Assembly: GCA_963752955.1 (NCBI GenBank)
Contig: CAVWAD010000002.1
Span: 8,573 to 72,572 of the forward strand
Direction: 5' to 3'
Length of the DNA stretch: 64,000 nt
Source: an uncultured archaeon
GTDB lineage: Archaea > Micrarchaeota > Micrarchaeia > Micrarchaeales > CABMGC01
Part shown: piece after piece, positions 24,113 to 43,513 of the stretch
Layout of the letters: each line of letters begins with the position of its first letter
Position numbering within the stretch: position 1 is the stretch's first letter
Notes under the pieces: model-generated
What the model was told of the DNA's origin: nothing
Seen by the model: only the letters and a program-made list of their open reading frames with translations
The model's database searches: none
Position numbers and translations under genes: made by a program

Positions 24113-24745
24113 CTAATACGGACTCTGCAGTCTTCCTGAATCTGCCGGGCGCTTGTATTTCTTGACAAAGTTCATGACCGCGGCGGACGTGTGTTCATCG
24201 TACTTGCTAAGATATGCTTTTAATTTGGGCACGCCCACAGCTTTCAGCAGGCCACCATAGTTCTGCAGCGATAGCCTTACCTTATAATGGAACAGGTCTA
24301 TCAGCGTCTTCTCCGGATCGGAGACGGGAAGCATCAGCTTGCCGCAGCCGAGCATGCCATAGCCGAAGAAGTATCTGAGGGGCACATGGTGCACAAATAC
24401 GGTGTTGTCCCGCTCTCCGAATATCGACACGGTTGAGGCGCGCACGCCTTTTATCGTCATTATCTCGGGCTTGGATCCTTGCGTCCACAGGCCGCGCAGG
24501 GTCAGCGCGGACAGGAGACCATAGTAGAAGGGAGCGTAGGCAAAGCCCGCGACCATGCTGTCTTTCATCACAGTGTAGACGCCCTTCCTTACTGAGTATA
24601 TCCTGTTTCCGCTCTTAAGATAAGAAAGCGTCCTTGCAAGGTCCGTTTTTTCTGCCTTTTTGCGTCCGAAGTACCTCCTGACATCACCATAGGTGAAGAC
24701 GGGGTACTTTGAGAATCGGTCAAGTATATCGTTGTTAAGCGTCAT
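24113..24745 (-). CDS. abiEi: AbiEi-like antitoxin / wHTH transcriptional regulator
   Basis: The N-terminal pattern is FTYGDV..LSYLKSGNRIYSVRKGVYTV. The ORF overlaps the AbiEii ORF by 11 nt. Confidence 0.6.
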   Translation of the reverse strand: MTLNNDILDRFSKYPVFTYGDVRRYFGRKKAEKTDLARTLSYLKSGNRIYSVRKGVYTVMKDSMVAGFAYAPFYYGLLSALTLRGLWTQGSKPEIMTIKGVRASTVSIFGERDNTVFVHHVPLRYFFGYGMLGCGKLMLPVSDPEKTLIDLFHYKVRLSLQNYGGLLKAVGVPKLKAYLSKYDEHTSAAVMNFVKKYKRPADSGRLQSPY

Positions 24746-25412
24746 CCACCCATCCCTTTATCTTTTTCATCATGAAACTGAAGGTCGGCGCGGCGCCGCT
24801 CAGGATCAGGTGGTCGAGGCTGCGCAGGTTCGGAGGGGGATTGCTCTCGACCGCCTTGACGAGGACTCTGAGCCTCCCAACGATCTTTGATTTTCTCGAT
24901 TTTATAATCGTAGTCAGATGGTAGATGTCATACAGGTCCTGCACCTCAGGCTCCCGGAACCGGTTTTTGCCCTGCATCTTGTCCTCGTAAGCGTCTATCT
25001 TTTCTTCCAGAAGCTCCTCGGGCGTAAGGGCCAGCACCACCATCCTGCTGCCGTCCACGTTCACATATTCCGCCGGGACCCCTTCCTTGCGCTTCAGGTT
25101 TATGTCCACCTTCATCTTAGTCGTCGATTCCACCAGGAAGTGCATGACGCCGTTGGCGCCATCGTATCCTTTCTCCTTTATCGCGAAGCCGCGGTCCTTC
25201 AGGAACCCTGCTAACTCTCGGTACTGCGTCCTCTTGTCCTTTGCGGCGTCCAGGTAGAAGTCGATGTCCCTTGAGAACCTGTTTCCAGAGTAGCACCTCC
25301 ATATCGCGGTGCCGCCGTGGAACACGAGTCCCTTGTATCTGCCGTAGAGCATGCTCACCAGGACGTCTTCAAGCCTGGCCTTTTCAAGCTGCTCCTCGTT
25401 CCTGAAGTCCAC
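24735..25412 (-). CDS. abiEii: AbiEii/AbiGii nucleotidyltransferase toxin (DUF1814)
   Basis: The hallmark motif LVFHGGTAIWRCYSGNRFSRDIDFYL is present. Confidence 0.8.
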   Translation of the reverse strand: MDFRNEEQLEKARLEDVLVSMLYGRYKGLVFHGGTAIWRCYSGNRFSRDIDFYLDAAKDKRTQYRELAGFLKDRGFAIKEKGYDGANGVMHFLVESTTKMKVDINLKRKEGVPAEYVNVDGSRMVVLALTPEELLEEKIDAYEDKMQGKNRFREPEVQDLYDIYHLTTIIKSRKSKIVGRLRVLVKAVESNPPPNLRSLDHLILSGAAPTFSFMMKKIKGWVDDA

Positions 25413-25635: not shown

Positions 25636-26778
25636 ATGCGCATCGCATTCGTCTACGACGCCCCGTACCCCTGGCACGTGGGCGGCATCGAGGTGCTGAA
25701 CCACAACGAGGTCAAGGAGCTCGCGAAGCACAACGACGTCCACTTCTTCACGACGAAATGGCCGGGCATGCCCTCCTATGAGTTCACATACAACGGCGCT
25801 AAGTACCACGCGCGCCGCGAGATCAACAGGGACATGCTCTACAGGCACAACAGGCGCTCGATAAGGGAGGCGGTGCTGTTCTCCCTGGGCCTCTTCAGGA
25901 TCTTCCGCTACGACTTCGACGTGGTCGTCGGCAACTACTTCCCGATCCTCCACCTTCCCGTGCTCTGGCTCTACTGCAGAATAAAGGGTGCGAAGCTGGT
26001 CATGGAGGTGGCCGAGGTGTGGGAGAGGAAGTACTGGATAAGCTACCTCGGGCAGCCCTGGGGCGAGCTCGCCAGCCTCTACTCTTCGGTGCTGATACAC
26101 GCCGGCGATGCATACGTGTGCGACTCCAGCGTGACCGCCAGGAAGCTCGCGGCGCGCGGCGTGGAGAGGGGGAAGATGCGCGTCTTCGCGCCCTGCATCG
26201 ACGGCGCGGAGATGGCCTCGATCGCTAGGTCATCCAGGGGAGAGAGGCGCAGGAGGATAATCTTCTCCGGGAGGCTCATAAAGGAGAAGCGGCTCGACAA
26301 GTGGCTGGCCGCGGTCAGGGCGGTGAGCGAGAGGATGCCCGGCGTGGAGGCGGTCATAATAGGCGACGGGCCTGAGCTGGGGCGGATAAGGGGCCTGGTG
26401 CGCGCGATGGGCCTGTCGCGGACGGTCAGGATGATGCCCTTCTACGAGGACAAGGCAGACCTGTACAGGGCGATAAGCGAGTCCTCGCTGCTACTGCACA
26501 TGTCCGAGAGGGAGGGCTTCGGGATAGTCTGCGTGGAGAGCATCTCGCTCGGCACGCCTGTGGTCCTGCCGTCGTACACGCCGATACCCGAGGAGGTGAG
26601 CGGCATGTGCGTCGTGAGGGACGAGAAGGACCTGCCGGACGCGATCATAAGGATCCTCAGGAGCAGGGACAAGTCCTCATTCATACGCAACGGGCGGAAC
26701 ATGGACAAGTTCCTGGTCTCGAAGGTGAACGGCTTCTACGGCGCGCTCTTCAGGAGGATCGGCCTGACGAAGAAATGA
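25636..26778 (+). CDS. glycosyltransferase family 4
   Basis: The N-terminus is MRIAFVYDAPYPWHVGGIE and the C-terminal motif is SEREGFGIVCVESISLGTPVV. Confidence 0.85.
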   Translation: MRIAFVYDAPYPWHVGGIEVLNHNEVKELAKHNDVHFFTTKWPGMPSYEFTYNGAKYHARREINRDMLYRHNRRSIREAVLFSLGLFRIFRYDFDVVVGNYFPILHLPVLWLYCRIKGAKLVMEVAEVWERKYWISYLGQPWGELASLYSSVLIHAGDAYVCDSSVTARKLAARGVERGKMRVFAPCIDGAEMASIARSSRGERRRRIIFSGRLIKEKRLDKWLAAVRAVSERMPGVEAVIIGDGPELGRIRGLVRAMGLSRTVRMMPFYEDKADLYRAISESSLLLHMSEREGFGIVCVESISLGTPVVLPSYTPIPEEVSGMCVVRDEKDLPDAIIRILRSRDKSSFIRNGRNMDKFLVSKVNGFYGALFRRIGLTKK

Positions 26779-26795: not shown

Positions 26796-27926
26796 TCAGG
26801 ACCGCTTCGCGACATTCCTGACCCTGTCGTCGAACACCTTGAAGAACCTCTTCCAGGAGTACCTCTCCCTGACGCGCCTCATCCCGCTCCTTCCCATCTT
26901 GGACATGTCGTGCTCCGAGACGTACAGCATCCTCTCGGCCATCTCGGACTCGCTGTTGACGAGGAAGCCGGTCTCCCCGTCGACTACCGTGTCCTTGGGC
27001 CCGCCCTCGTTCACGGCTATCACCGGCTTGCCGCTCGCCATCCCTTCCAGCGGCACCAGGCCGTAGTCCTCGTTCATCGGCGGGTACAGCACGGCCGTCG
27101 CCCTTGAGAGCAGCTCCCTGTACCTCCTGTCGGAGACGCTGCCAAGCACCTCGACGTCGCCGACCTGCCTCGCCAGGGGCGCCACGACATCCGAGTAGTA
27201 CGAGCGGAGCTGCCTGTCCTTCGAGACGGGCCCGGCCAGCACGAGCCTGTACCCCCTCTTCCTCCTCTTGAACGCGCCGAACGCGCGTATCGCGTACTCC
27301 TGCCTCTTGTTCGGGGAGATCCTGGAGGGGTAGAGGAAGTACCTCTCCGCGCCGCGGTTCCCGAAGAGCTCGTAGTCGACGCCGCCGTTCAGCACCTCCG
27401 ACTCCCTCCCGTAGTATTTCGTTATCCTTGACTTCGTGTTGCCGCTGTTAGCGAATATGTACTCGAGCTTCCTAACCGCACCCCTGTCCATCGCCCTGAC
27501 CGCGGACGCGCCAAGCACGTAGACCGGCCTCTGGTAGGGCTTCTTGAGGGAGAGCCTGAACTTGTACAGGTCGTAGACGTCCCTCAGCGGGGTGTGGCAG
27601 TACCACAGCACGCGCTCGTTCCTGTTCCTTATCCAGTGGCTCGGCGCCATGTGAGCGTTTATGACGTCGTAATCGTCCTTCATCCTGAAGTTGTAGAAGG
27701 AGAGGCCGTAGTTCAGCCCCTGCATCACCCTGCCGTAGGGCAGGGCCCCGAGGAACGACTTGGACCCTATCACCTCGACGTCGAGCCCCTTGAACTCCGG
27801 GAAGGTGGTCTTGCTGTTGTACTCGGCGGTGTATATCTTGGCGTCGTAGTGCTGCGCTATCTTCAGCACCACCCTCTCCCCTCCGCCGAACAGCGTCAGG
27901 TTGGACTGCGCTATCGCGAGCTTCAA
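26796..27926 (-). CDS. glycosyltransferase family 4
   Basis: The PPMNEDYGLVPLEGMASGKPVIAVNEGGPKDTV motif is present. Confidence 0.85.
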   Translation of the reverse strand: MKLAIAQSNLTLFGGGERVVLKIAQHYDAKIYTAEYNSKTTFPEFKGLDVEVIGSKSFLGALPYGRVMQGLNYGLSFYNFRMKDDYDVINAHMAPSHWIRNRNERVLWYCHTPLRDVYDLYKFRLSLKKPYQRPVYVLGASAVRAMDRGAVRKLEYIFANSGNTKSRITKYYGRESEVLNGGVDYELFGNRGAERYFLYPSRISPNKRQEYAIRAFGAFKRRKRGYRLVLAGPVSKDRQLRSYYSDVVAPLARQVGDVEVLGSVSDRRYRELLSRATAVLYPPMNEDYGLVPLEGMASGKPVIAVNEGGPKDTVVDGETGFLVNSESEMAERMLYVSEHDMSKMGRSGMRRVRERYSWKRFFKVFDDRVRNVAKRS

Positions 27927-27984
27927 TGAATCACTTTCTCGTTAGGTATCCGATGAAACTTATTTATATGTCTTCGGTGGCTCC

Positions 27985-28203
27985 GTGCCCTGGCGCCTCG
28001 ACCGCCTGCTCGATGTCGTTCATGGTAAGCTCCAGCAGCGCGTCATCCAAGACCCCGAGCGTGGGGGCGCGCTCAGCGAGCTCTCGAGGAACTACGCGGC
28101 GCACGCGAAGAGGAACGCGAGGATAAGCAGGGAGGTGCTCGGGGAGTTCTCCGGGGACAGGGCCGACGAGGTCTACGAAAGGATAATCGGCGGGCTGAAG
28201 TGA
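27985..28203 (+). CDS. hypothetical small protein (72 aa, GTG start)
   Basis: The ORF ends 30 nt before IS copy B. Its composition is acceptable but no family was recognised. Confidence 0.25.
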   Translation: MPWRLDRLLDVVHGKLQQRVIQDPERGGALSELSRNYAAHAKRNARISREVLGEFSGDRADEVYERIIGGLK

Positions 28204-28232
28204 TGGCGCCTGGGGCCGAGGCTTATTATTTA

Positions 28233-29753
28233 CTTGACTTCGCCACTTCTCTCGTAAACTGACGAAAACTATTTTTATGCCAAGGGCAGTATTCTCATTG
28301 ATAAGATGAAGAACACAACTACGCCCTTGGGCGGTATAGCTATCATCGACAAGATAGAAAATGATTTCGGTCTGCTCTCCTCGGTCTTCGGAGGGATCAT
28401 GAGTCCCGCATACGTCGGGCGGTTGAAACTGCTCCTCAACAACCGCCTGACTTTCGCGACGTCGATACACCAGGTAATTCCCACCTCCTCTGAAGACACC
28501 TGTGCGCTTCTCGGCGCAGAGGGCGCCTCGGAGAGGTCGCTGTACAGAACCGTCGAGAAAGTGGGGCTGCTCTCGGCGGCGATAGTAGAAAGGTATCAGA
28601 ACTTCCTCAACACGAGGGATCTCGCAGACAAGGACCAGAACATAGACTGGTCGTCGATATATTTCGAGGGGAATAAGGCCGAGATGGGCGCACTGGGTTA
28701 CTCCAGGGACCACCGCCCCGACAAGAAGCAGGTGACCTTCGGGATAGCGACGGGAATCAATGGAATCCCTACTGCACTGACGATTCAGAAGGGGAACGTC
28801 CTGGACAAGAAGCATTTTGTCGAGACGTACAACGTCGTCAAGAGGATACTGCAGAAGGATTCCCTATTGATATTCGACTGCGGCGCGAACACGAAAGGTA
28901 ACAAGGAGATGATAGTCCATGACAGGTTCAACTACCTGACCCTGAAGCAGAAGAACGTCAAGAACTATAGGAAATATATCGCCATGTTCAAGTCCGCGGA
29001 GAAATCGACGATAAAAATCGGCGACAACACCTACTTTGCGGCAGTGGTGGAAGAGAACGGCGAATTCCAATACATCTACTTCTCGAAGACGCTTCTCGAG
29101 ACGCAGATACGCAACAAGAACAGGAAGTTCGAAAGGCGAAAGAAGATGGGTAACAAACTCGCGAAGAAAGCGGGAAAACACAAGGCGGTGGAGACTTACC
29201 CCTGCGAGAGGGGATGGGTCGAACTCTACCCGGAACTCCAGACCGCACTGGGATGCGTCGAGAACCCCTACATAAACGGGATAGAGGGGTTCTTTATCCT
29301 CGAGAGCACGGTGAAAGCGAGTCCCGATGATATCCTGAGGATATACAAGCAAAGGGATGCCGCGGAGAAACTCGTGCGCAACATGAAGGAAGGGATCGAA
29401 CTGAGGCCTGTCAGGCACTGGACGAAATATGCAATAATCGGCGCAATCCTGATCGCATTCCTCGCGGAATCCCTGATAAGTTTGACACTGCTTTCATGCA
29501 AGAATCCCCTCGTCAAGAACGTAAAGCTCCTCAAAAAATACCTGACGAATTTGACAGCGACCTTCGTTTACCCTCCCGGAAGGTTCAAATTCACGGTAGT
29601 GAGCAACATTTCTCCCCCGATTTCGGAGATTTTCGGCAGTTTCCTGCGCAGATATGGTACGAAAAACCTCAATCTGCGCTGGTAGGAACCGTTTTGGCGA
29701 ATTGAGTTGGAGGCAACTGTCAGACACTTCGCGGCCTATTTGGCGAAGTCAAG
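28233..29753 (+). mobile_element. IS1634-family insertion sequence, copy B
   Basis: It has the same 1521-bp element and inverted repeats as copy A, in inverted orientation. A 7-bp target duplication TTATTTA lies at 28226-28232 and 29754-29760. Confidence 0.9.
28306..29685 (+). CDS. IS1634-family transposase
   Basis: The translation is identical to that of 17208..18587. Confidence 0.85.
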   Translation: MKNTTTPLGGIAIIDKIENDFGLLSSVFGGIMSPAYVGRLKLLLNNRLTFATSIHQVIPTSSEDTCALLGAEGASERSLYRTVEKVGLLSAAIVERYQNFLNTRDLADKDQNIDWSSIYFEGNKAEMGALGYSRDHRPDKKQVTFGIATGINGIPTALTIQKGNVLDKKHFVETYNVVKRILQKDSLLIFDCGANTKGNKEMIVHDRFNYLTLKQKNVKNYRKYIAMFKSAEKSTIKIGDNTYFAAVVEENGEFQYIYFSKTLLETQIRNKNRKFERRKKMGNKLAKKAGKHKAVETYPCERGWVELYPELQTALGCVENPYINGIEGFFILESTVKASPDDILRIYKQRDAAEKLVRNMKEGIELRPVRHWTKYAIIGAILIAFLAESLISLTLLSCKNPLVKNVKLLKKYLTNLTATFVYPPGRFKFTVVSNISPPISEIFGSFLRRYGTKNLNLRW

Positions 29754-29766
29754 TTATTTATATATC
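29754..29766 (+). promoter_or_regulatory. TATA-like box of the giant surface-protein gene
   Basis: TTATTTATATATC lies about 30 nt upstream of the ATG at 29792. Its first 7 nt are the IS target duplication. Confidence 0.45.
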
Positions 29767-29791
29767 TAGTCAGTTACAGTATAACGTTTGT

Positions 29792-32700
29792 ATGCGAAGG
29801 CGAAAAACAGCCACGAGACCCGCATTACTGTACACCGCGCTGTTCCTGATCCTAGTCGCAGTCATCTCACTGAGCTTCATCCCCGCGAAATCGGCCGCGC
29901 ACGCGGGCGCGGCGGCGCAGTCCGTCGCGTTCTCCGCGCCGATTGCCTCGGGCGCGGGGCCGGCGAACGTGATCCGCCCCGCGGTCATGCAGGAAAGCTC
30001 GGAGTGCTCGGGCAATTCCGACTGCGCCTGCACGAATCCGTGGTGCTACTCGGACTCCGTTGGCGGGCCCGAGAGCTGCCATCCCTGCCCTTTGGGTTCG
30101 CAGCTGGGCCAATCGGCCGACGGGACGGCGATCTGCGCTTATAACAGCGGGGGCTCCATGCCTTTCAGCGCCGGGGCGTCCGGCACCTGCATCAGCGGAG
30201 TGCCGACCGCGAGCAGCACGGCGGCCCAGAGCATCGCGCCCGCGGGGACCCAGTGCTCGGCCGCCAACCCGTGCCCCTGCACGGAGTCGTGGTGCGTCGG
30301 AGGGAGCTGCCAGGCGTGCCCCCAGGGCTTCTACCCGAACGGCGTCGGGGAGTGCGAATCCTTGAGCGGCGGGAGCTATCAGGGCTTCACGACGTCGTCC
30401 GGCTGCACACCCAGCACCGCCGCGTCGACGATCAGCAACACGGGCGGGAGCATCGGGAGCGGGAGCGTGGCGGCGAACTGCCACGGCACCTCTGACTGCT
30501 ACTGCAGCGAACCTTACTGCGTGCAGGGGAACTGCTACCCGTGCCCTGCGAAATACAAGTGGGACAGCGAGACGTCGCAGTGCATATCGCTCGCAGATGG
30601 CTCCATATATTCCGGAACTGCGCCCACCGGCTGCATGAGCGGCATCGTGCAGACGTCGTCGGGCGAGAGCATAGGAAGCGGGAGCGTGGCGGCGAACTGC
30701 GCGAGCCCCGCCGACTGTTTCTGCAGCGAACCGTACTGCAACAGCGGGAACTGCTATCCCTGCCCGCCGACATACTACTGGAACAGCGAGAACTCGCAGT
30801 GCATATCGATCAGCAACGGCGCGGTATACTCCGGGGCGGCGCCCACAAACTGCAAGAGCACCCTTCCCTCGACTTCGGGCAACAGCGGCGGGAGCATCGG
30901 GAGCGGGAGCGTGGCGGCGAACTGCCATGGCACCTCCGACTGCTACTGTAGCAGCCCGTACTGCGTCCAGGGCGACTGCTACCCGTGCCCGTCGACATAC
31001 TACTGGGACAGCCCGGACGCGAAATGCGTATCGCTCGCCGACGGCTCCATCTACGCCGGCGCGAGGCCCACCGACTGCATGAGCGGCGTTCCGTCGACCG
31101 CCGCCACGGCGACCCAGACCACCTCGTCGGGAGGGACCCAGTGCTCGGCCACCAACCTGTGTTCCCAGTGCACTGATTCATGGTGCGTCAGCGGGGAGTG
31201 CCAGCCGTGCCCGTCCGGCTGCTACCTGAGCGGCGCGGGAGGGGCGTGCCTGTCCTATCCGTCGACGCCGGGGGCCAGCGGGGTAAGCAAGTGCGCGCTC
31301 GCCTCGTCTCCTGCCTCCACGTGCGGCAGCACGTCGTCCGGCGGAACTTCATCCAACGGCGTGGCTGGCGGCTCGACGCTCATCGTCAGCCTGCCCGGTT
31401 CCGCGGGCGTCGTTAGCATAGGAGCGGGCTCGCAGGCCGCGCAGCCGAGCGTGAAGACGACGGACGCGACCCTCACGTCGCCGCCCGCGCCCGCTGGCCT
31501 GTCGAAGATCTCGGCCGTCACAGTCAGCGTGACCCCGAACACGTCCGCGCCGGTCAGCGTGACGCTGCCCTACCCGTGCTCCGCGTCTTCGGGAGACATA
31601 GCGCCCTACGCCGTGGTCAACGGCGCGTGGAGCAAGATAGGCTCATTCACGATAAACCCGAAGGCGTGCTCAGTATCGTTTCCGATAAGCTCCGGGTCCC
31701 AGGCTTCCGGCGGCAGCGGCACAACGTCCCAGGCTTCCGGCAGCGGCGCTTCAACAGGCAGCGGGACCGCTTCGAGCGGCGGCGCTTCCTCGAACAGCGG
31801 CGGATTTCCCTCGGTCACGCTACCGATCCAGGCTTCTAGCGCCGTCGGCGCGCGCCCCTTAGTTCCCGCCATCGACGCCGCCCCCGCGGCGCAGGGCGGC
31901 GCTTCCCCAAACGCGGGAATCTCCCTTGACAGTTCGTCCTCGTCGGAGGGCACTTCCCAGACGGTGGGCATATTCGAGACGTCTTCCGGCTCATGCACCA
32001 ACTACTGCGACGGCGTCGGCGGATCCGGCGCCTCGTGCACTAGCATCATGAGCGTGGACGCGCAGGTGGTGCAGATCAGCATATGCCACCTCTACCAGAC
32101 GGTCACGACCGCCTTCGATAACCCGGGGTCGGAGCTGGCGGCGTCGGGACAGGCGGGGCCGTTCGACACCTCCCCGGCGAACGCGGTGAACGACTACAAC
32201 GCGCAGAGCGCGCTGCCCCTCCTCACCTGCCCGAACGCGCCCGAGAAGAACCCAACTGACGCAAGCTACTTCTACTCGGGAGCGGTCCCAAACGTGGCGG
32301 GCGACGCGTGCACGCCGGTGCCCTCGAGTCTGAAGACCGGCATAGACCTCCAGACCGATTTTTCGACCATGCAGATGGTCGCATACTCCTACAGCACCTC
32401 GCCGCTGCCCATACAGGTCAATGGCCACCTGGTGGAACAGCCCACCACGTTCTACGACTACGTGAGCATCGAGGACGCGAAGGTGAACCCCGACATGGTA
32501 GTGTCGAACGTCGGAAGCCTGCAGCTCGAGGACATCGCGTACTCGCCGATGATCCTGGATGGGTCGGGCGGCACGATATCTAGCGCCTTCGCGACCAACA
32601 GCTACGTCTTCGACGGCGTCCCGGCCTCGGCGCAGCACGCCATATGGACCTGGACCGCCCAGTTCGCGGACCTGTCCAACGCCGCGCCCGACCAGCAGAC

Positions 32701-35700
32701 AGTGGTGCTCACCGACCTCCGGGCGAGCTACTCATGGTCGCCGCAGGCGATACACCCCAGCAGCAGCTGCAGCTCCGTCCTGTACTCCTGCGTCTACAGC
32801 TACACCCTCACCGCGGTGACGTCGCTGAGCGGCATCGCCAACACCTACGTGCCCTTCAACGTGGTGACCCCGGACGGGCCGAAGCCGGTGAGCTCCAACG
32901 TACTTCCCTACTTCACGTTCGGCGCCTCGATGCCGACGCCGGACGGGCAGCCGATGTCGCAGTCCTACGACGTCTTCAGCCCGCTGAACTACTACACGCC
33001 GGGGAACTCCATCGAGATGTTCCCCATCAACACGCCGGGCGCGTTCTTCGTGCAGCGCGCCGTGAGCCCGCCCTTCACCAGCTACCTGCTCTCGATGCCC
33101 GAGGGCACGGTGAACAACGCCCTTGCCTTCGGCAGCGCGCTGGACGCCGCGTACGGCAGCGATCCGAAGTTGCCGCCGAGTCTCGTCAGCCTGAGTGCGG
33201 CGAATCCCGGCGCTGGCGCGGCGAATCCGTTCCCGGCCAACCCGATCTCGGTCACCGGCACGCCCGAGGGCTATGTCTTCGTACTAAATTCGAGCTGCAC
33301 GGGGCCGTATCCCTGCACGCCCACTTACTACCTCAGCATCCTCAGGCCGGTGGACAAGGGCTACTACAGCATCCCCGGCTACCAGCCGAACGGCGTGCCC
33401 CAGGCCGCCGCGGGGACCGACGCGGCGGCGAACGCCCTGTGGGCCGGCAACTGGAAGAGCTACTGGGAGAACGTCATGGCGCTGCAGAGCAACTCGATCT
33501 ACGTGGTTAACACGCTCACCCTCAGCACCCCCGGGACCCTCAAGGTGCCCGAGGGGACGGGCCTGCTCTCCGGCTACACCAAGCAGCTCCAGAGCCAGGA
33601 GTTCGGGCTCGGATGGGGGTTCGTGCCGCTCAACATAAGCGCCGACTCGAGCGGGGACGTCTTCATAACCGGCTCCGAGGGCGCGCTGCTGGGCCTGGGC
33701 GGCGGCTTCCCGGCGATAGTGGAGGTAAGCAACACGCTCAACCCCACGCAGACGCAGGTCACAGCGACGCCGCTCGACTGGTCGAGCAGCGTCGGGATCA
33801 ACGCCCTGCCCGAGATAGCGGCCACCTCCACAGGCGGGCTGATCTTCGCGACGGGCCCGAAGGAGGGCAAGATCTACGCGTTCGCGCCGTCAGGCGACGG
33901 GATCTCCAACGCCTACGACATCGACCTCGCTTACTCCGCCAGCACATCCGTGAGCGGATCCGGGACCGTGATGCTTAACGTGAGCTACTACCTGTACCAC
34001 GGCGGGCCCTACGGCGTCCCTATGAACGGCGCTGTGGTGAACGGGGTCCAGACGCCCAACGCCATCGACGGGAACAACAACCTCGACGCTGGCAGGGACT
34101 TCGACACCGACCTGCAGCACCACCCGCTCGGGATCCAGGAATCCGGGGGCTTCCTCTACGTTCTGGACGACTGGAGGGGCTACGCGGGCTCCAGGGAGTC
34201 CTGCCCGCTGCTGGGCTCCTGCACGTTCACGGGCGGGATGGCCTTCGACATGCTCTCTGTGAGGGTGCTCAACTCCACGGGTTCGAACCTGCCCGTGGAC
34301 CCTACGCGCTTCAACGACATGTGGCAGTCGCAGTCGTGCGACAACCCGATGTTCCTGGGCCACACTTCCGGCGGCCTGTCGGCCGGCGACATCACACCGA
34401 GCGCCCCCACGATAAGCAGCGGGCAGTCCGTCACCCTCACCGCCAACCCCTCTGGAGGGACGCCTCCGTACACCTACGGCTGGTACGTGGACCCCGGCTG
34501 CACGTCGCAGATAGCCAGAGCGGCATCCAGTACCTACACCACGTCCCCGACGGGCACGGACACCTTCTATTACAAGGTCAAAGACAGCGCCGCGACTCCC
34601 GCGACGGTGTGCTCCGCGGGAGACACCGTGACCGTGAGCAACGGCGGCGGAGGAAGCGGCATCGGAGCAGCGACCTGCGGCGGACCGATACTCCCGCCCT
34701 GCCCGGCTTCGGGCAGCGCCTCCCAGAGCGGCGGCACCGCTTCGGGTACCGCACCAGCCTCGCAGACTCCGAGCGCCGGCTCGCAGCCCGTGCAGGCCGA
34801 CGTGAACACGTGCTACGACACGACCAAGCCGCCGGCAACTTCCATACCCACGTGCTCGCCGAAGGAGTGCAGCCTCGCCATGGCGGGCTGCGACCTCCCG
34901 GGCGGGGTCGTCGGGACCAAGTTCTCGTGCGAGGACAAGAGCACGGGTAGCGGAGCCTACTCCACGCTCGCCACGAGCCAGTACGCCAGCGGCACCTACC
35001 CCCCCTATGGCTGGGTCCTCTCAGCGGACGTCGTCCCGTGGGGCGGCGAGGGACCCGCCGACAATGCCAAGGAGGTGACCTTCTGCTCCTCGTCGGGATG
35101 CTCGTTCAACCCGGGCAAGATGCCGGGCCCGGACATGTACTCCGGCGGCTACACGCCAGTCGGGCCCGAGCTCTCTGTCGCGAACGCGGAGATAGACTCG
35201 CCCGCCTTCTCGGTGAACTTCAACGGCACGCTTGACCTGCTGCTGAACACGCCGAAGCCGGGCATAGTATCGAGCCTGTGCAGCTTCTTCCTCGGCGCGC
35301 TCTGCGGAAAGCCGCCCAACCCGACGGCCTATTCAGAACTGCTCACCGCGGACCTCAACATACTGAACTACACGAAGATCCTCCAGGGCGAGCCGGCGTA
35401 CACCTGCTACACGACGGACACCAACGACCAGAACTACCGCGCCGGAGGGTGCAACTACCTGCCGGAACTGGGCGACAGCGCGTACACCGGCCCGATATAC
35501 ACTTTCCCGAACCCGCTCGAGTACCTAGAGAGGGTGGGCGGCGCGCAGACGCTGAGCTTCGCAGGCCAGGTGTCCTCGTCATACCCGTCGGGCACCAGCC
35601 ACGAGGGCTGCCAGAGCCTGATAACCGGGGGTCAGGGATGCACGTCCAACGCGCTGTACAACCCCGGCCCGCCCGCGCTGACGATCCAGCAGGATCCCGT

Positions 35701-38122
35701 CGGGTGGGGGCAGCCCGACGTCATAACCGGCAAGGCGGAGGCGGCGACCGACGAGGTCGTCATCTACTTCAACAACGAGGTGGCGATGACCGGAACCGGC
35801 ACCGCGTCGTTCACCGTATCCGGCAATCCTGCGATATGCACCAACCCCGGCAGCGTCACCGAACAGTACACCCTGCCCATCGAGAACTGCCCGCCGCCCC
35901 GCGCGGAACCGTACTCCGTGAACGTTGTCGACCTAACGACCGGCCAGTACAACGCCAACGCGCTGACCGTATATCCCGCGCCGCTCCTTGCGCTGCAGAG
36001 CTCCACGGTAGACGTCGAGCAGTCGGGCGCCGGGAACTCGTGCACCAGCGACCTCATAACCGCGAACGCGCTGGACAACGTGGGCACCGTCGTCATATCC
36101 ATAGCGGAACCCGGGGGCGGCGAGGTCGCGAGCGCCTCTGGCACGGGCTCCGCCTACTACATAATACCGGGCAGCGCCGGGCTCTGCGACGGCCTCACCG
36201 CGGGCACGTACACCGTCACCGCGAGCGTGGCCGGCCAGAGCCCCGTCAGCCAGAGCCTCTACGTCAGCACGACCACGACCCAGCAGGCCCTGCCGGCCGG
36301 GTCGGTGGCGACGCAGGCGCTGTCGACCAGCGTGGGCGGCTATGTTGTGGTGCCCTATAAGTACACCTACTCACTGCAGCAGGACTGGGGCGGCGCCGCC
36401 GAGGTCGTCAGCCTGTCCAGCACCACGCAATGTGACTGCAAGACGGGCTGCAGGACGCCTACTGTGGGAGCCGACTGCCCCTACAACGTGGTCCCCGACC
36501 GGCAGTTCTCGCAGCAGACGGTCTACAGCTACGCGCTCACGAGCGGCACTTCGGATACGCTGACCGCGACGGTCGAGAGCGGCGACACCTACCTGAAGAG
36601 CCTCAGCTCCGGCACGCTCTACGTCCCGAACATGTCCGACGCGGGCGTAGTGGTGCCTCCGCAGGTGCTCTACGTCCTTATGAACAACAGGCTCTTCGGC
36701 ACGCTCTACGTCAACGACACTGGCTGCAAGCATAACGGCGCCTCGGTCTGGGACTGCTCCGGGAACCCGCAGTACGTGCTCAACGCGACCAGGCAGGACA
36801 AGTACGCCATGAACTCATACTCGCAAGACGGCGGCGGCGCCGGTGGCTCCGGAAGCTACGAGACCCTGCAGGTCCTGCCCGAGGAGGAGCCCGAGTACGG
36901 CGCGAACCTCATAGCCCCGTCCCAGCTCCAGCAGGCGGTGACCACCCAGAACGCGATCGGCTTCGCGTACGAGCTGACGGGCGGGATGGACTTCGTCTCG
37001 ATCTTCGACCTCTACAGGCAGGTCGCCTACTCCAACCCGCTCTACATGTACCTCAACAGCACGCCGTTCTTCGAGAACGGGCTGCCGGTCAACGCGATGG
37101 GCTACCACAGGCTGACGTACGTCATGGAGGACAGGTTCGGCAACAGGATCATGGCGCCGATGGACGTCGACGTGGCCAACCCAGTGACGATAGCCCTCAA
37201 CGTCAGCACCGCGGTGGACCAGAACAACGCCAACCAGACCGCCCTCACGATAAACGGGGTCGCCGGGTCGTACTCGGACTTCGGCACGGTCTTCACCCCG
37301 CTGCCGGCGGGCCAGCCGGTATACCTCTACTACAACAGCAACCTCAACTACGTCGAGTACAACCCCATGCGCAACCCGCTCGACGCCGTCATCTGCGCCT
37401 ACAACCTCAACGACCCGACGAAGCAGCCGTGCCACCAGTCCGACCCGACTTACACCGGAAGGCAGGCGAACGCCGGCCAGATGACTTTCGCGACGTCGTA
37501 CAACTCCGCAAGCCCGGACGAGTGCAACCCCCCGCCGAACAGCCTGCTGGCCAAGAGCTGGACACCGTGCAACGTCTACGGGAACCTCGACCTCCCCTCG
37601 GCGTGCACCGGCGCGGGGCCGCAGCAGTTCTGCATGCCCGTGTACGCCAACGGCACGGGCGAGTGCACGTCGCAGCTCGGGCTCTTCGCGATCGCCCAGA
37701 CCGACGCCAGCGGCGCGTTCAGCGCAAACATAATAGCGTGCGGGAGCAGGCAGGACGAGATAACCGCGCAGTACTACGGATGGTCACCTACGCCGGAGCC
37801 GATCTCCGTGACGCAGGTGCCGCTCGCGCTCTCCGAGAGCAGGGTCAACACGCCGGGCTCAGCGGGGAGCGCGGCGATAACGTCCAACGAGCTCAACTAC
37901 TACTCGGCTCCGGCGCAGGCCACGACGACTTTCACGATAGGCCTCTTCGAGCTCAACTACGGCGACCTTGGGGTAGCCGCGTTCGGAATCGGCATAGTGG
38001 CGGTGCTGGCGATCCTGGTCGCGAAGAAGGCGGCGGAGGATAGGAGGGCGAAGAGGCGGCGCGTCGGGGTCCGCGGCCGGACGGCAGCAGGAAGGATGCG
38101 GAGGCGGACGCCTCCGATGTAG
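29792..38122 (+). CDS. giant (2776 aa) secreted, C-terminally membrane-anchored cell-surface protein with Cys-rich modules
   Basis: The signal peptide reads MRRRKTATRPALLYTALFLILVAVISLSF..AKSAA. It is followed by six tandem 8-Cys modules, S/T/G-rich linkers, an Ig/PKD-like segment (SGGTPPYTYGWY) and many N-x-S/T sequons. The C-terminus has a TM helix (VAAFGIGIVAVLAILVA) and a basic tail. The track ORF start at 29654 lies inside the IS and is an artefact. Confidence 0.85.
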   Translation: MRRRKTATRPALLYTALFLILVAVISLSFIPAKSAAHAGAAAQSVAFSAPIASGAGPANVIRPAVMQESSECSGNSDCACTNPWCYSDSVGGPESCHPCPLGSQLGQSADGTAICAYNSGGSMPFSAGASGTCISGVPTASSTAAQSIAPAGTQCSAANPCPCTESWCVGGSCQACPQGFYPNGVGECESLSGGSYQGFTTSSGCTPSTAASTISNTGGSIGSGSVAANCHGTSDCYCSEPYCVQGNCYPCPAKYKWDSETSQCISLADGSIYSGTAPTGCMSGIVQTSSGESIGSGSVAANCASPADCFCSEPYCNSGNCYPCPPTYYWNSENSQCISISNGAVYSGAAPTNCKSTLPSTSGNSGGSIGSGSVAANCHGTSDCYCSSPYCVQGDCYPCPSTYYWDSPDAKCVSLADGSIYAGARPTDCMSGVPSTAATATQTTSSGGTQCSATNLCSQCTDSWCVSGECQPCPSGCYLSGAGGACLSYPSTPGASGVSKCALASSPASTCGSTSSGGTSSNGVAGGSTLIVSLPGSAGVVSIGAGSQAAQPSVKTTDATLTSPPAPAGLSKISAVTVSVTPNTSAPVSVTLPYPCSASSGDIAPYAVVNGAWSKIGSFTINPKACSVSFPISSGSQASGGSGTTSQASGSGASTGSGTASSGGASSNSGGFPSVTLPIQASSAVGARPLVPAIDAAPAAQGGASPNAGISLDSSSSSEGTSQTVGIFETSSGSCTNYCDGVGGSGASCTSIMSVDAQVVQISICHLYQTVTTAFDNPGSELAASGQAGPFDTSPANAVNDYNAQSALPLLTCPNAPEKNPTDASYFYSGAVPNVAGDACTPVPSSLKTGIDLQTDFSTMQMVAYSYSTSPLPIQVNGHLVEQPTTFYDYVSIEDAKVNPDMVVSNVGSLQLEDIAYSPMILDGSGGTISSAFATNSYVFDGVPASAQHAIWTWTAQFADLSNAAPDQQTVVLTDLRASYSWSPQAIHPSSSCSSVLYSCVYSYTLTAVTSLSGIANTYVPFNVVTPDGPKPVSSNVLPYFTFGASMPTPDGQPMSQSYDVFSPLNYYTPGNSIEMFPINTPGAFFVQRAVSPPFTSYLLSMPEGTVNNALAFGSALDAAYGSDPKLPPSLVSLSAANPGAGAANPFPANPISVTGTPEGYVFVLNSSCTGPYPCTPTYYLSILRPVDKGYYSIPGYQPNGVPQAAAGTDAAANALWAGNWKSYWENVMALQSNSIYVVNTLTLSTPGTLKVPEGTGLLSGYTKQLQSQEFGLGWGFVPLNISADSSGDVFITGSEGALLGLGGGFPAIVEVSNTLNPTQTQVTATPLDWSSSVGINALPEIAATSTGGLIFATGPKEGKIYAFAPSGDGISNAYDIDLAYSASTSVSGSGTVMLNVSYYLYHGGPYGVPMNGAVVNGVQTPNAIDGNNNLDAGRDFDTDLQHHPLGIQESGGFLYVLDDWRGYAGSRESCPLLGSCTFTGGMAFDMLSVRVLNSTGSNLPVDPTRFNDMWQSQSCDNPMFLGHTSGGLSAGDITPSAPTISSGQSVTLTANPSGGTPPYTYGWYVDPGCTSQIARAASSTYTTSPTGTDTFYYKVKDSAATPATVCSAGDTVTVSNGGGGSGIGAATCGGPILPPCPASGSASQSGGTASGTAPASQTPSAGSQPVQADVNTCYDTTKPPATSIPTCSPKECSLAMAGCDLPGGVVGTKFSCEDKSTGSGAYSTLATSQYASGTYPPYGWVLSADVVPWGGEGPADNAKEVTFCSSSGCSFNPGKMPGPDMYSGGYTPVGPELSVANAEIDSPAFSVNFNGTLDLLLNTPKPGIVSSLCSFFLGALCGKPPNPTAYSELLTADLNILNYTKILQGEPAYTCYTTDTNDQNYRAGGCNYLPELGDSAYTGPIYTFPNPLEYLERVGGAQTLSFAGQVSSSYPSGTSHEGCQSLITGGQGCTSNALYNPGPPALTIQQDPVGWGQPDVITGKAEAATDEVVIYFNNEVAMTGTGTASFTVSGNPAICTNPGSVTEQYTLPIENCPPPRAEPYSVNVVDLTTGQYNANALTVYPAPLLALQSSTVDVEQSGAGNSCTSDLITANALDNVGTVVISIAEPGGGEVASASGTGSAYYIIPGSAGLCDGLTAGTYTVTASVAGQSPVSQSLYVSTTTTQQALPAGSVATQALSTSVGGYVVVPYKYTYSLQQDWGGAAEVVSLSSTTQCDCKTGCRTPTVGADCPYNVVPDRQFSQQTVYSYALTSGTSDTLTATVESGDTYLKSLSSGTLYVPNMSDAGVVVPPQVLYVLMNNRLFGTLYVNDTGCKHNGASVWDCSGNPQYVLNATRQDKYAMNSYSQDGGGAGGSGSYETLQVLPEEEPEYGANLIAPSQLQQAVTTQNAIGFAYELTGGMDFVSIFDLYRQVAYSNPLYMYLNSTPFFENGLPVNAMGYHRLTYVMEDRFGNRIMAPMDVDVANPVTIALNVSTAVDQNNANQTALTINGVAGSYSDFGTVFTPLPAGQPVYLYYNSNLNYVEYNPMRNPLDAVICAYNLNDPTKQPCHQSDPTYTGRQANAGQMTFATSYNSASPDECNPPPNSLLAKSWTPCNVYGNLDLPSACTGAGPQQFCMPVYANGTGECTSQLGLFAIAQTDASGAFSANIIACGSRQDEITAQYYGWSPTPEPISVTQVPLALSESRVNTPGSAGSAAITSNELNYYSAPAQATTTFTIGLFELNYGDLGVAAFGIGIVAVLAILVAKKAAEDRRAKRRRVGVRGRTAAGRMRRRTPPM
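30005..31330 (+). repeat. six tandem ~75-aa Cys-rich coding modules
   Basis: The module consensus is C-x5-6-C-x-C-x3-(W/Y)C-x3-4-C-x2-CP...C...C. The DNA stretches starting at 30443 and 30887 are identical for 41 nt and have 3 mismatches over about 67 nt. Confidence 0.85.
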
Positions 38123-38163: not shown

Positions 38164-39394
38164 GGCTTCATCCCATAATTCATGCCGACGCTAATCCTGA
38201 CCTTTTCGGGCGGTAAGATTTTGTTCCTTTCCGTCGATGCCACATTATGGGAAAGCCCAAAAGGAGGGCAAACCCGAAGGTGGTAACGAGAGTCGATAGA
38301 AACATAGCGGTATTGACCGCAAAGACCGCGAAGAGATTCGCCAATAGGCTTCCTCCCCCTTGGGAGAAGAAGACGAGGGGAAGTCCCCCGATACACGACA
38401 GCAGAACAGTATTCGTGCTGTGCCTCCTAATGGTCTCCCTGAACCTGACTTATGATGGCATGGAGGTGGAAAAACGGAAGGGATACCTTCAACAGGTGTT
38501 GAAGGCCCCGAACCTCCCGAGTCGTAGCGCATTACATCGAGGAATGCAACGACTTGATCAAAAATACATCAGGAAGTTCAATAAACTTCTCGTTAGGAAG
38601 TTTGTCAACAAGGGAATGACCGTTGCGGTGGATTCGACAGGGATACGACTGATGGTCAGCAGTTCGTGGTACGACATCCGAATTGGGAGGGTCAACAAAA
38701 GGAGGGACAACGCGAAATTGCACATATCTGTGGCCCTGCGAAGAAACATTATCGTAGGATACAAGATAACGTCGTGGAAACGAAACGATTCGCCGCAACT
38801 GGGGTTCCTATTGCGCGACATCGACGAACTTCTCCAGGTGCTGGGAGATGCAGGATACCTCGGCCGAGACAACTGCAACGTAGTTGCCAGCAAGAACGGG
38901 AGGCCGTTCTTCGCCCTTAAGGATGGAGTAAAAAGCAGGGCGAAAGGTTCGCAGGCATGGAAGGAGATGGTCGTATTCGCGAGGAAAAAGAAGGAGCTGT
39001 ACGACGCGATTTATCATGCGCGTTCGGTGATAGAAAGCATCTTCTCCGCGGTAAAGAGACGGTATGGAAGTTGCGTAAGGGCTGTGAATCGGAAGACGCG
39101 AAACATGGCGATCGCGCTGAGGGTGATCGCCTTCAACATAAAACAGCGCCTCTACGACGCAACGGCAAGGCGACTAGGGTTGCCATTCTGGGTAAAGTGC
39201 GACCGGTAAAAAGGACCTGAAGGTCATCAACAGTTAGCGGAAGCGAAGTCACATGAGTTCTAGGCCGATGTTTTCCGTCGAAATCTACGCCTTTTTCAGA
39301 AAATCGATGCCACATACGGCCCAGAACATGCAGACAATTCTTTCTCATCGACGGACAACCGCCTTCGCGGCGTCATTCTTTATGGGATGAAGCC
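38164..39394 (+). mobile_element. IS5-family-like insertion sequence (1231 bp)
   Basis: Perfect 15-bp inverted repeats GGCTTCATCCCATAA (38164-38178) and TTATGGGATGAAGCC (39380-39394) bound the element. A 9-bp target duplication TACCATGGG lies at 38155-38163 and 39395-39403. Confidence 0.9.
38247..39209 (+). CDS. DDE transposase, IS4/IS5 superfamily
   Basis: The 320-aa protein has VAVDSTGIRL, LGDAGYLGRD and a YHARSVIESIFSAVKRRYG (Y-x2-R-x3-E) region. Confidence 0.85.
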   Translation: MGKPKRRANPKVVTRVDRNIAVLTAKTAKRFANRLPPPWEKKTRGSPPIHDSRTVFVLCLLMVSLNLTYDGMEVEKRKGYLQQVLKAPNLPSRSALHRGMQRLDQKYIRKFNKLLVRKFVNKGMTVAVDSTGIRLMVSSSWYDIRIGRVNKRRDNAKLHISVALRRNIIVGYKITSWKRNDSPQLGFLLRDIDELLQVLGDAGYLGRDNCNVVASKNGRPFFALKDGVKSRAKGSQAWKEMVVFARKKKELYDAIYHARSVIESIFSAVKRRYGSCVRAVNRKTRNMAIALRVIAFNIKQRLYDATARRLGLPFWVKCDR

Positions 39395-39398
39395 TACC

Positions 39399-40544
39399 AT
39401 GGGGATACCTATTTATAGGAAGAAACGCACAATCATACACATGGGATGGGTGTTTGGAATGGCGTTGGTGCTGCTGCCGGTGCTGCTGACGTTCGGCGCG
39501 ATAGACGCGCTGGTGCCGGTCCTGATCATAATCGTGCTCATAGCCGCGGCCGCGACCCTGACGAGGGGCTGGAACGCGCTTAACATATTCGGCATAGGCG
39601 TACTCGCGGGCGTGGCCAGGCAGGCCGGCACAAGGGGCTCGATGAGGGGAAAGTCGACCATGACCGGAGGGAGGACGCCCGGGCGTGGCTACTCTAAGCT
39701 GGCTGCGGGGGCGTTCAGGATCAAGGGCAGGACCAGCGACCTGCTCAACACCAAAGCGGCGCTCGCGCCGAAGGAGGCGCAGAAGCTCAGGGCGGAGGCC
39801 AAAACCCTGCCCGACGCTGAAAGAATGGCGAAGGAAAAACAGGCAATGCAGCTGGAGAAGAGGGCCCCGATGTACGTGAAGCTAGCGACCGGGCTGGACA
39901 TCGTGGGCATGACGCACGCGAAGAAGATGTGGGGTTCCATGCGCGCGGACATGAAAGATGCAAAGACCGAGAAGGAGGTGCGCGACTCGACGGGAATCAA
40001 CCCGAACTACAATGTTGTGAACTACAATGTTGTGGCCCCCGAGGAGCAGCTGTCCAAGGCGAAGGACGAGATAGCGAAGGAGGTGGCCAAGCGGCAGGGC
40101 GAGCTGAACAGGACATACTACAACATGAACGTCAATCCGAAGATGGCGAGCAAGCTGGAGGCGGAAGCGAATACCGCAATCCAGCCGCTGGTGGCGAAGG
40201 CAGTGCTCTGGGAGCAGGTCAGGGCCGGCCACCTTAGCAATACACTTACAGAAGGGGGGGTCTGGGACCTCGTAAGCCAGATGAGGGAGAGCAGGGGGGT
40301 CTTCGCCCCAGAGAACCTGAGTAGGGAGGCCGGGGTATACACCTCCTCCATTCCGGCCGCGCTGACTTCGTACGTTCCGACGGACTCAAACACCAGGAAG
40401 CTTGCAGACCTGCTGGAGCTGCCTCCGAAGCCTCTCGACCTGGCGGTGCTGGCAGCGGGGTCGCTCATGACGGGAGGCGCATACTTCGCGGCTCACGTGG
40501 TCAACAGAAAGATCGAAAAGAGAAGGAAATACGAGGAGCTTTAG
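39399..40544 (+). CDS. membrane protein with N- and C-terminal TM segments and a K/E-rich helical middle
   Basis: The start ATG at 39399 lies inside the right copy of the IS duplication. The track start at 39387 is inside the IS inverted repeat, and an alternative ATG is at 39441. The N-terminal TM pair is MALVLLPVLLTF../VPVLIIIVLIAAAATL and the C-terminal TM is LAVLAAGSLMTGGAYFAAHVV. Confidence 0.6.
   Translation: MGIPIYRKKRTIIHMGWVFGMALVLLPVLLTFGAIDALVPVLIIIVLIAAAATLTRGWNALNIFGIGVLAGVARQAGTRGSMRGKSTMTGGRTPGRGYSKLAAGAFRIKGRTSDLLNTKAALAPKEAQKLRAEAKTLPDAERMAKEKQAMQLEKRAPMYVKLATGLDIVGMTHAKKMWGSMRADMKDAKTEKEVRDSTGINPNYNVVNYNVVAPEEQLSKAKDEIAKEVAKRQGELNRTYYNMNVNPKMASKLEAEANTAIQPLVAKAVLWEQVRAGHLSNTLTEGGVWDLVSQMRESRGVFAPENLSREAGVYTSSIPAALTSYVPTDSNTRKLADLLELPPKPLDLAVLAAGSLMTGGAYFAAHVVNRKIEKRRKYEEL
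40004..40033 (+). repeat. perfect 15-bp tandem duplication (encodes NYNVV NYNVV)
   Basis: GAACTACAATGTTGT occurs twice back to back, in frame. Confidence 0.95.
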
Positions 40545-43509: not shown

Positions 43510-43513
43510 GGCG

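Follow-up and report, generated by a model that had tools for sequence, protein, structure and literature searches.

The 64,000-nucleotide stretch analysed here (contig CAVWAD010000002.1, positions 8,573 to 72,572; hereafter the window) contains a gene for a surface protein of 2776 amino acids (aa) that carries six tandem eight-cysteine modules near its N-terminus. This giant protein is a member of a surface-protein family restricted to Micrarchaeota, whose conserved core is accompanied by a partner gene, and the array of Cys modules is a lineage-specific, membrane-distal addition at the N-terminal end of that core. The sequence leads us to favour, with modest confidence, a membrane-anchored spike whose variable tip would bind a ligand or a host. 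Giant Micrarchaeota surface proteins with PKD and propeller domains are already known and have been proposed to function in host interaction (PMC5498576); what is new here is the Micrarchaeota-restricted core family, with its partner and variable tips, and an eight-Cys module that is essentially an orphan. The window itself comes from a Micrarchaeota (DPANN) archaeon: its IleRS is 70% identical to that of one Micrarchaeota metagenome-assembled genome (MAG), 56% to that of another and far less to those of other archaea, and STT3/AglB, also encoded in the window, is an archaeal marker.

29792..38122, + strand: coding sequence of the 2776-aa giant surface protein; single open reading frame (ORF), G+C content at third codon positions (GC3) 0.89 as in core genes

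A preliminary description of this DNA had left about 2000 residues of the protein as sequence of low recognisability. Approximately 1650 aa of this region prove to be a conserved Micrarchaeota core that was overlooked. A word-index search with the whole protein, its candidate list swamped by low-complexity words, retrieved nothing beyond the protein and one other, with PKD repeats; the family emerged when the query was split. Queries from the middle and the C-terminal part then identified P0017-P0023, hypothetical proteins of ~1440-1660 aa where complete, two of which are named by their source as coming from Micrarchaeota or Micrarchaeaceae MAGs. In BLASTP comparisons, residues 737-1523, 1654-1959 and 2153-2750 align as collinear blocks with P0019-P0023 and 14 genome ORFs (E 1e-15 to 0). 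Identity within the family core, which totals ~1650 aa in three collinear blocks, ranges from 27 to 56%.

31994..34360, + strand: core block N, residues 735-1523; 31-52% identity to P0011, P0017-P0023 and 19 genome loci
34751..35668, + strand: core block M, residues 1654-1959; collinear with homologues
35669..36247, + strand: insert, residues 1960-2152; found in the closest relative (L069), not in distant members; no Pfam match
36248..37951, + strand: core block C, residues 2153-2720; membrane-proximal, with eight invariant Cys (alignment A5, 15 members)

Judging from its sequence, the insert at residues 1960-2152 seems to comprise two beta-sandwich units that contain one pair of Cys each. Scans of species-representative genomes yielded 19, then 50 family loci, mostly labelled Micrarchaeota, Micrarchaeia or Micrarchaeaceae; of the others, a few are MAGs with no more than "archaeon" in the title, and two bear the label Marsarchaeota. 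The family ORFs span 1600-3148 aa. The 15 members aligned in A5 have in common a C-terminal transmembrane helix, a basic tail and the eight invariant membrane-proximal Cys residues, and because of these cysteines extracellular disulfides are probably a family trait. The closest described counterparts are Micrarchaeota proteins annotated as hypothetical (RXO35_03830, 1658 aa; QXX74_03380, partial), which resemble the window protein in the three blocks, the N-terminal signal, the transmembrane anchor, the eight Cys and the downstream partner. Typical members, of ~1600-1700 aa, differ from it in lacking the six Cys modules, a small domain at residues 521-632, a long S/G/T-rich linker and an Ig/PKD-like unit. 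A literature search found no published description of the core family or of the eight-Cys module.

39441..40544, + strand: partner gene; homologues directly downstream, on the same strand, at 12 family loci; no Pfam match

Translation of the partner gene probably starts at M19 of the ORF beginning at 39387, and an insertion sequence (IS) has displaced the gene by 1.1 kb in the window. The partner protein (window and L061-L073), of a membrane/coiled-coil type, has ~300-480 aa, with N-terminal transmembrane segments and a charged, helical middle part rich in K, E and A. In distant members the two-gene cassette lies among housekeeping genes (KsgA, Pelota, TBP, L21e); NAC and GT2 genes are found downstream both in these members and in the genome of the window (NAC according to the L056 gene calls, L056 being a second assembly from the same population).

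Relative to the core, the window gene has gained the N-terminal 735 aa and residues 1524-1653, and shares the gain of the insert 1960-2152 with L069. In P0017, P0018 and L069, the core follows the signal peptide directly, with no extension. Other members carry N-terminal tips of a different kind: PKD and Big_3_5 domains in L062, a Cys/Gly-rich segment in L063 and a 1290-aa Cys-free repeat region in L074.

In the window protein, the tip consists mainly of the six Cys modules, which hold 48 of its 100 Cys residues (within residues 72-133, 155-205, 230-281, 303-354, 378-429 and 451-486). All six were assigned from the Cys pattern and a hidden Markov model (HMM) of the module.

29996..30244, + strand: Cys module 1, residues 69-151
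30245..30472, + strand: Cys module 2, residues 152-227
30473..30691, + strand: Cys module 3, residues 228-300; also modelled with AlphaFold2 (AF2)
30692..30916, + strand: Cys module 4, residues 301-375
30917..31132, + strand: Cys module 5, residues 376-447; C378 is Ser in L056
31133..31351, + strand: Cys module 6, residues 448-520

The pattern C-x5-6-C-x1-2-C-x3-6-[WY]C-x3-10-C-x2-CP occurs six times in the protein, and only two of 5000 composition-matched shuffles of residues 1-560 contain at least one match to it. With per-module HMM E-values of 1e-14 to 1e-25, the Cys positions and the shuffles bear out the six tandem modules reported initially. The GSIGSGSVAA linker said to join them is present between modules 2 and 3, 3 and 4, and 4 and 5, and not at the remaining junctions. 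The structure prediction of a single module that had been proposed as a follow-up was made on module 3, where AF2 returned two beta-hairpins (mean predicted local distance difference test score, pLDDT, 71.7). The modules also have conserved aromatic residues, in the motifs [YW]C and CP.G[YF]. We infer that they would fold as small beta-hairpin domains stapled by disulfides.

The module is nearly without relatives. Neither Pfam nor NCBIfam gave a match to a single module, even at E <= 10. Searching PDB sequences with a six-module profile gave a best E of 0.23 (the LOX-1 lectin domain, matched at its CP..W......C hairpin), and with an 11-module profile nothing. No well-described domain family thus matches the module in Pfam or in PDB profile searches, and the novelty claimed for it stands. 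An HMM search, a check likewise suggested at the outset, was run exhaustively over 1.84 billion representative proteins and produced seven matches at E <= 1e-3. The whole module is present only in the protein itself and in P0011 (E = 9e-24, five modules), a Micrarchaeon orthologue, which makes the latter the sole other full-module protein in that set. The remaining five matches are confined to the C-P-x-G-[YF]-x-W-D-x5-C hairpin, and three of these proteins have partial CBM_14 matches. Among the family loci scanned with it, the module HMM matched the window gene, the same gene in L056, and L057 only. A genome-contig scan with alignment A2 revealed no further module carriers, and a metagenome-contig scan revealed one distant core relative, with no modules. 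The eight-Cys module is therefore essentially an orphan and, if it folds as predicted, would represent a new small disulfide-rich archaeal domain. The earlier view that such an N-terminal array is unusual for an archaeal protein is upheld.

The likeness of these modules to EGF or furin-type repeats, put forward in the preliminary description, found no statistical support in sequence or structure comparisons. EGF-like domains, as defined by the Pfam families, have six Cys paired C1-C3, C2-C4 and C5-C6, while the module has eight Cys in a different spacing; no structural superposition on solved EGF-like, furin-like or TNFR-type members was obtained. The six-Cys CBM14/peritrophin-A domain gave no HMM match either, the CP.G..WD....C hairpin alone being common to the module and the proteins with partial CBM_14 matches. 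EGF-like, laminin-type EGF, furin-like/GCC2_GCC3 and CBM14 domains resemble the window modules in being small, tandem and extracellular, with an even number of Cys and beta-hairpins, and the hairpin motif C-x2-C-P-x-G-[YF]-x-[WY]...C is common to both. The module differs from the whole group in its eight Cys, its spacing and the lack of a Pfam or significant PDB-profile match. Since Pfam and PDB gave no match and the remote matches cover the hairpin only, the EGF/furin likeness is one of motif, not of membership.

The array bears marks of recent turnover. Two 41-nucleotide (nt) stretches are exactly identical, as first noted by inspection.

30443..30483, + strand: linker and start of module 3; identical to 30887-30927
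30887..30927, + strand: linker and start of module 5; identical to 30443-30483

The repeat encodes the linker GGSIGSGSVAANCH that precedes modules 3 and 5. Modules 3, 4 and 5 are 50-66% identical to one another (dN/dS ~0.4), and the proportion of synonymous differences (pS) is ~0.45 elsewhere in modules 3 and 5; by our estimate, the chance of a fully identical 41-nt run in this setting is ~0.02. Such identity inside modules that differ at ~45% of their synonymous sites suggests a tract of gene conversion or unequal crossover. Modules 2 and 6 also have a junction repeat in common. In the related Micrarchaeon (L057), a pair of modules recurs, the DNA of the copies being 93% identical. Its protein record, P0011, represents a frameshifted gene truncated by the contig end: the preceding frame encodes the true N-terminus (MRRQKAS...) and a first module, and yet another frame carries the coding sequence on to where the contig stops. 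Reassembled in this way, the L057 orthologue has six modules, then the domain equivalent to residues 521-632 and the core (46% identity). Module arrays have therefore been reshaped independently in two lineages by tandem duplication, and possibly by gene conversion. The 41-nt identity and the L057 repeat both support the early suggestion that the arrays evolve by duplication or conversion.

Repeats and a high GC content make a region such as this one prone to assembly error, and the giant gene is flanked by IS elements; moreover, a frameshift is present at 37306 in L056 and two occur in the L057 orthologue contig. Nonetheless, we give almost no credence to the ORF being an artefact of assembly or a pseudogene in decay, in which a repeat region, chimeric or collapsed, would be misread as a single frame. 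The two assemblies concur on six modules and on the whole 8.3-kb ORF, which answers the concern raised earlier that the gene might be fragmented. L056 is 99.6% identical to the window across 28 kb; within the giant gene, the two differ by four single-nucleotide polymorphisms (SNPs) and by a single-base indel at 37306, with six modules in both. Past 37306, it is the window frame that can be aligned with 15 homologues as far as the transmembrane anchor. Furthermore, GC3 stays at 0.85-0.94 in frame along the entire gene, and short-read contigs from soil and freshwater-sediment runs are 100% identical to it at several sites, including exact matches across module junctions. In these runs the organism is present at ~2-5x and in tiny contigs, too shallow for determining module copy number. 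All four SNPs (30924, 31610, 36303 and 37671) are nonsynonymous (C378S, A607T, S2171L and S2627L). The first of them would delete the first Cys of module 5 in L056, and is either a real variant or a long-read error.

An identical protein is recorded in NCBI/ENA (P0003). Its start at 29792 agrees with that of the orthologue (MRRRK in the window, MRRQKAS... in L057); an alternative, longer ATG at 29654 falls inside an IS element. A TATA-like box precedes the start and is kept in L057 (TTATTTATATCT...GTTTGTATGCGAAGGC).

29754..29767, + strand: TATA-like promoter box (TTATTTATATATCT), ~30 nt 5′ of the ATG

The first 7 nt of this box double as the target-site duplication on the right side of the upstream IS. 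At 66% GC, compared to ~55% in the surrounding region, the giant gene could be taken for a horizontal acquisition. This possibility was discarded: GC3 (0.89) equals that of the IleRS, AglB and GT4 genes, and the GC excess is carried by second codon positions (GC2 0.57 versus ~0.40), reflecting a composition rich in Ser, Gly, Ala, Thr, Pro and Cys. The giant gene is real and intact, and has native codon usage.

The predicted topology places the modules at the outer end of the protein. A hydrophobicity scan shows just two hydrophobic segments (residues ~7-36 and ~2723-2748), in line with the signal or transmembrane N-terminus, C-terminal anchor and Arg-rich tail of the preliminary description, which had also listed S/T/G-rich stretches, here seen at residues 633-734.

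29792..29923, + strand: N-terminal signal peptide or transmembrane segment, residues 1-44 (MRRRK, a 20-aa hydrophobic stretch and AKSAAHAG)
31352..31687, + strand: small domain, residues 521-632 (PYPC...VNGAW.KIG.FTINP.AC.VSF); common only to the L057 orthologue (alignment A2); no Pfam match
31688..31993, + strand: S/G/T-rich linker, residues 633-734 (55% S+T+G); missing from orthologue P0011
34643..34750, + strand: second linker, S/G/P-rich by composition, residues 1618-1653
37952..38119, + strand: C-terminal transmembrane helix (residues ~2723-2748) and Arg-rich cytoplasmic tail; kept in 15 members

The N-terminus is similar in orthologues P0017, P0018 and L057. Because a Sec-type N-terminus is combined with a C-terminal anchor whose positive tail would lie inside, the N-terminus is predicted to be outermost: the topology is that of a type-I protein with an acidic extracellular part of ~2680 residues, the N-terminus being most distant from the membrane. 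Overall, the protein contains 100 Cys (3.6%), 39 Met and 181 D+E versus 66 K+R. It matches no family in Pfam or NCBIfam, and no catalytic family in Pfam, NCBIfam or PDB profile searches. As for the PGF-CTERM/archaeosortase class, there is no NCBIfam match at E <= 1 and the C-terminus has no PGF motif.

Two further regions bear a weak resemblance to known folds.

33239..34186, + strand: beta-propeller-like blades in block N, residues ~1150-1465 (e.g. GDVFITGSEG, GGLIFATGP..KIYAF, HHPLGIQESGGFLYVLDDW); weak
34361..34642, + strand: Ig/PKD-like unit, residues 1524-1617 (SGGTPPYTYGWY); an insertion found in no other family member

The core probably includes a beta-propeller at residues ~1150-1465, as suggested by NHL-like blade motifs, by repeat matches below threshold and, as a weak hint, by a poor model. 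An AF2 model of core block N built from nine sequences has an overall pLDDT of 35, rising to 50-70 only at residues ~1150-1465; with this model, the top Foldseek matches are all beta-propellers (best E = 3e-4, template-modelling score <= 0.38). SBBP repeat matches, below threshold, occur in three homologues. The Ig/PKD-like unit announced in the preliminary description could be located at residues 1524-1617, but its family matches are all sub-threshold: SprB (2e-4), Ig_3 (9e-4), PKD (0.014; for PF00801, 15.9 bits versus a cut-off of 23.5) and Big_9. The unit is clearly homologous, at 35-45% identity (E down to 4e-10), to repeats of P0002, which themselves show faint PKD, SprB and Ig_3 matches. 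P0002 (L079 1868-13045, 3725 aa), from another MAG, comprises more than 12 repeats of this SGGTPPY.Y.WY Ig/PKD-like unit.

The protein was initially described as having many N-x-S/T sequons, implying heavy N-glycosylation. Neither point was upheld: the protein has 14 sequons, versus 28.4 +/- 4.4 in composition shuffles (z = -3.2), and is thus depleted in them. None lies inside the Cys modules or their linkers. Other Cys-rich members behave likewise (window protein, P0011, L062, L067 and L070; 2.8-5.1% Cys, z = -3 to -4), while in Cys-poor members (P0019-P0023; 1.4-1.7% Cys) sequons are neutral or enriched. Across P0011, P0017-P0023 and L061-L074, sequon density varies inversely with Cys content. 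Phylogeny may explain this relation, or disulfides may be traded for N-glycans; the pattern hints that the two are alternative stabilisers of surface proteins.

Micrarchaeota attach to Thermoplasmatales hosts. The surface of these hosts is rich in mannose and galactose, and filaments have been seen at Micrarchaeon-host contacts (PMC8975820). An episymbiont organism, a fast-changing and lineage-variable tip, and the filaments at contact sites together lead us to favour a spike binding the host or the matrix. In such a scheme, the giant protein would be exported via Sec; the conserved core, with its probable beta-propeller, would act as a stalk or base bridging the space between membrane and S-layer; the S/G/T-rich linkers would provide flexible spacers; and the six modules would form a ligand-binding tip touching the host surface or matrix, plausibly through host glycans. 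The adhesin or host-contact role suggested at the outset is therefore the one best fitting a DPANN organism and a variable tip on a conserved core, traits from which we infer it. No attachment protein is known, to our knowledge, in Micrarchaeota.

A number of points weigh against this reading. Glycan binding by the modules is a guess by analogy, drawn from a hairpin motif that recalls CBM14 and C-type lectins, from the conserved aromatics and from the abundance of mannose and galactose on the Thermoplasmatales surface, and so has a motif-level basis. Disulfides in the modules are assumed, given the extracellular location and the even Cys counts. The call of a propeller is weak, as the core could not be modelled (AF2 pLDDT 35). 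No RNA run holding the giant gene was found, and expression in this strain could be altered by the IS in the promoter, which replaces the sequence just 5′ of the TATA box, and by the one lying before the partner gene. Finally, distant family members sit in a housekeeping neighbourhood and are nearly single-copy, a setting that a structural envelope role fits equally well.

That structural role is the main rival, and the two are mutually compatible. It would have the anchored core tether or space the S-layer lattice in the manner of SlaB, with the N-terminal additions serving as decoration or stabilisation. The family is widespread in Micrarchaeota, mostly single-copy, set among housekeeping genes and accompanied by a conserved partner gene, and its C-terminal transmembrane anchor is conserved; all this would suit an envelope component. 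SlaB itself is a protein of ~400-500 aa with a coiled coil and no variable tip, and family members, at 1600-3150 aa, are far larger than such stalks. The membrane-distal architecture is wholly different between lineages, which is unexpected for docking to a conserved S-layer protein, and we rate the purely structural alternative as rather unlikely. The window protein resembles the SlaB-type stalks of Sulfolobales (mentioned in bioRxiv 10.1101/2021.04.28.441871) in its Sec signal, extracellular beta-rich domains, C-terminal transmembrane anchor and occurrence in an S-layer archaeon; no sequence relation to SlaB appeared in any search. In favour of such a role, the Micrarchaeota S-layer protein has no anchor identified (bioRxiv 10.1101/2021.04.28.441871; PMC8975820).

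That S-layer protein (SLP_Mh), identified by experiment, is a PF05123 protein of ~101 kDa that is nearly devoid of sulfur amino acids and has numerous predicted glycosylation sites (bioRxiv 10.1101/2021.04.28.441871). It was also proposed that the giant protein forms the S-layer lattice itself; in favour, it is large, secreted, acidic (D+E 181 versus K+R 66) and encoded next to AglB and glycosyltransferases. As the identified Micrarchaeota S-layer protein is a different, sulfur-poor one, we consider this highly improbable: the giant protein does not match S_layer_N (PF05123), contains 100 Cys and 39 Met, is depleted in sequons and, at 2776 aa, is ~3 times as long.

A third alternative, an anchored extracellular enzyme or substrate-capture protein that binds or cleaves biofilm-matrix polymers for nutrients, draws on the propeller-like blades, on the lyases, lactonases and a xyloglucanase found among non-significant structural neighbours, and on the dependence of Micrarchaeota on external carbohydrates (PMC8975820). 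The profile searches above identified no catalytic family, and the Foldseek matches, obtained with a model of pLDDT 35, point to a generic propeller only; this role seems improbable.

Returning to the host- or matrix-binding spike, several known systems offer comparisons. SPEARE proteins of Nanohaloarchaeota are very large surface proteins thought to serve host attachment. With the giant surface proteins of DPANN and CPR episymbionts (giant proteins discussed in PMC10266531), the window protein shares its very large size and a genome-reduced episymbiont as source; it has no protease, restriction-endonuclease or other SPEARE-type domain in Pfam or NCBIfam, and its family is restricted to Micrarchaeota. 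'Ca. Mancarchaeum acidiphilum' Mia14 also has large, strain-specific surface proteins of the PKD/beta-propeller type, for which a part in cell-cell interaction was proposed (PMC5498576). These proteins (PKD, Kelch/YVTN propeller and CARDB) are alike in phylum, great size, secretion or anchoring, the combination of propeller and PKD/Ig domains, and a proposed contact with Thermoplasmatales. They differ, by their description, in that the window protein has no CARDB, Kelch or YVTN Pfam match and no Cys-rich modules are reported for the Mia14 set.

The family is a candidate for attachment, found in 50 species-representative genomes with a conserved partner and a hypervariable outer tip, and it can be tested in co-cultures (A_DKE/Scheffleriplasma, Mia14/Cuniculiplasma, ARM-1/Metallosphaera). 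Going further, the two-gene cassette could be the host-attachment apparatus of Micrarchaeota, its stalk bearing a lineage-specific tip that sets host range and the module being an undescribed, disulfide-rich and lectin-like domain family invented in one sub-lineage. We offer this broader proposal tentatively, as a possibility short of probable. The cassette might account for the contact-site filaments or for the S-layer anchor.

The glycosylation genes described as adjoining the giant gene are indeed there, with AglB/STT3 and three GT4 genes upstream.

18939-19988, + strand: GT4 gene
20242-22719, + strand: AglB/STT3 gene
25636-26778, + strand: GT4 gene
26796-27926, - strand: GT4 gene

AglB and GT4 genes also lie upstream in L057, with no IS between, but not in distant family members. 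Within the cluster, on the minus strand, are a gene for an AbiEii-type nucleotidyltransferase toxin (24735-25412) and, overlapping it, a 210-aa ORF (24113-24745) presumed to encode the antitoxin.

Two unrelated IS elements flank the giant gene.

28233..29753, + strand: IS4-like element, 1521 bp, in the promoter of the giant gene; inverted repeats, transposase 28306-29685
38164..39394, + strand: second, unrelated IS; DDE_Tnp_1 transposase 38247-39209, 31-nt inverted repeats, starting 42 nt past the stop codon

The upstream element has an intact 7-bp target duplication, TTATTTA (28226-28232 / 29754-29760), which forms part of the TATA box. A second copy, inverted and 99.9% identical, is found at 17140-18660 (-), its flanks having no matching duplication; the two copies enclose the AglB/GT4 cluster. 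The transposase has 459 aa, with a Y-2-R-3-E-6-K motif read from the sequence. The IS end at 29753 is backed by a public short-read contig running from the IS into the flank of the other copy. The second IS sits between the giant gene and the partner gene and overlaps the annotated partner start at 39387. A composite transposon carrying the giant gene was considered and rejected, the flanking elements being unrelated and the upstream one having its own intact target duplication. Altogether, the 64 kb contain four DDE transposase genes of at least two kinds, at 1222-2169 (+), 17208-18587 (-), 28306-29685 (+) and 38247-39209 (+), a high IS load for a small genome. Two long ORFs at 27964-28815 (-) and 28864-29418 (-) have GC1 above GC3, the opposite of real genes nearby, lie mostly antisense to the IS and transposase, and are probably not genes.

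Elsewhere, ~85 of the ~105 differences between the window and L056 over 28 kb (including 16 indels) fall within 43400-45112, in the GT2 gene at 43514-45112 (-). Either a surface-glycan gene is hypervariable at strain level or recombining, or the consensus mixes haplotypes. Lastly, a 587-aa ORF at 47240-49003 (-) joins a thymidylate-synthase-like region to a C-terminal PterinBD-DUF4346, an unusual fusion.

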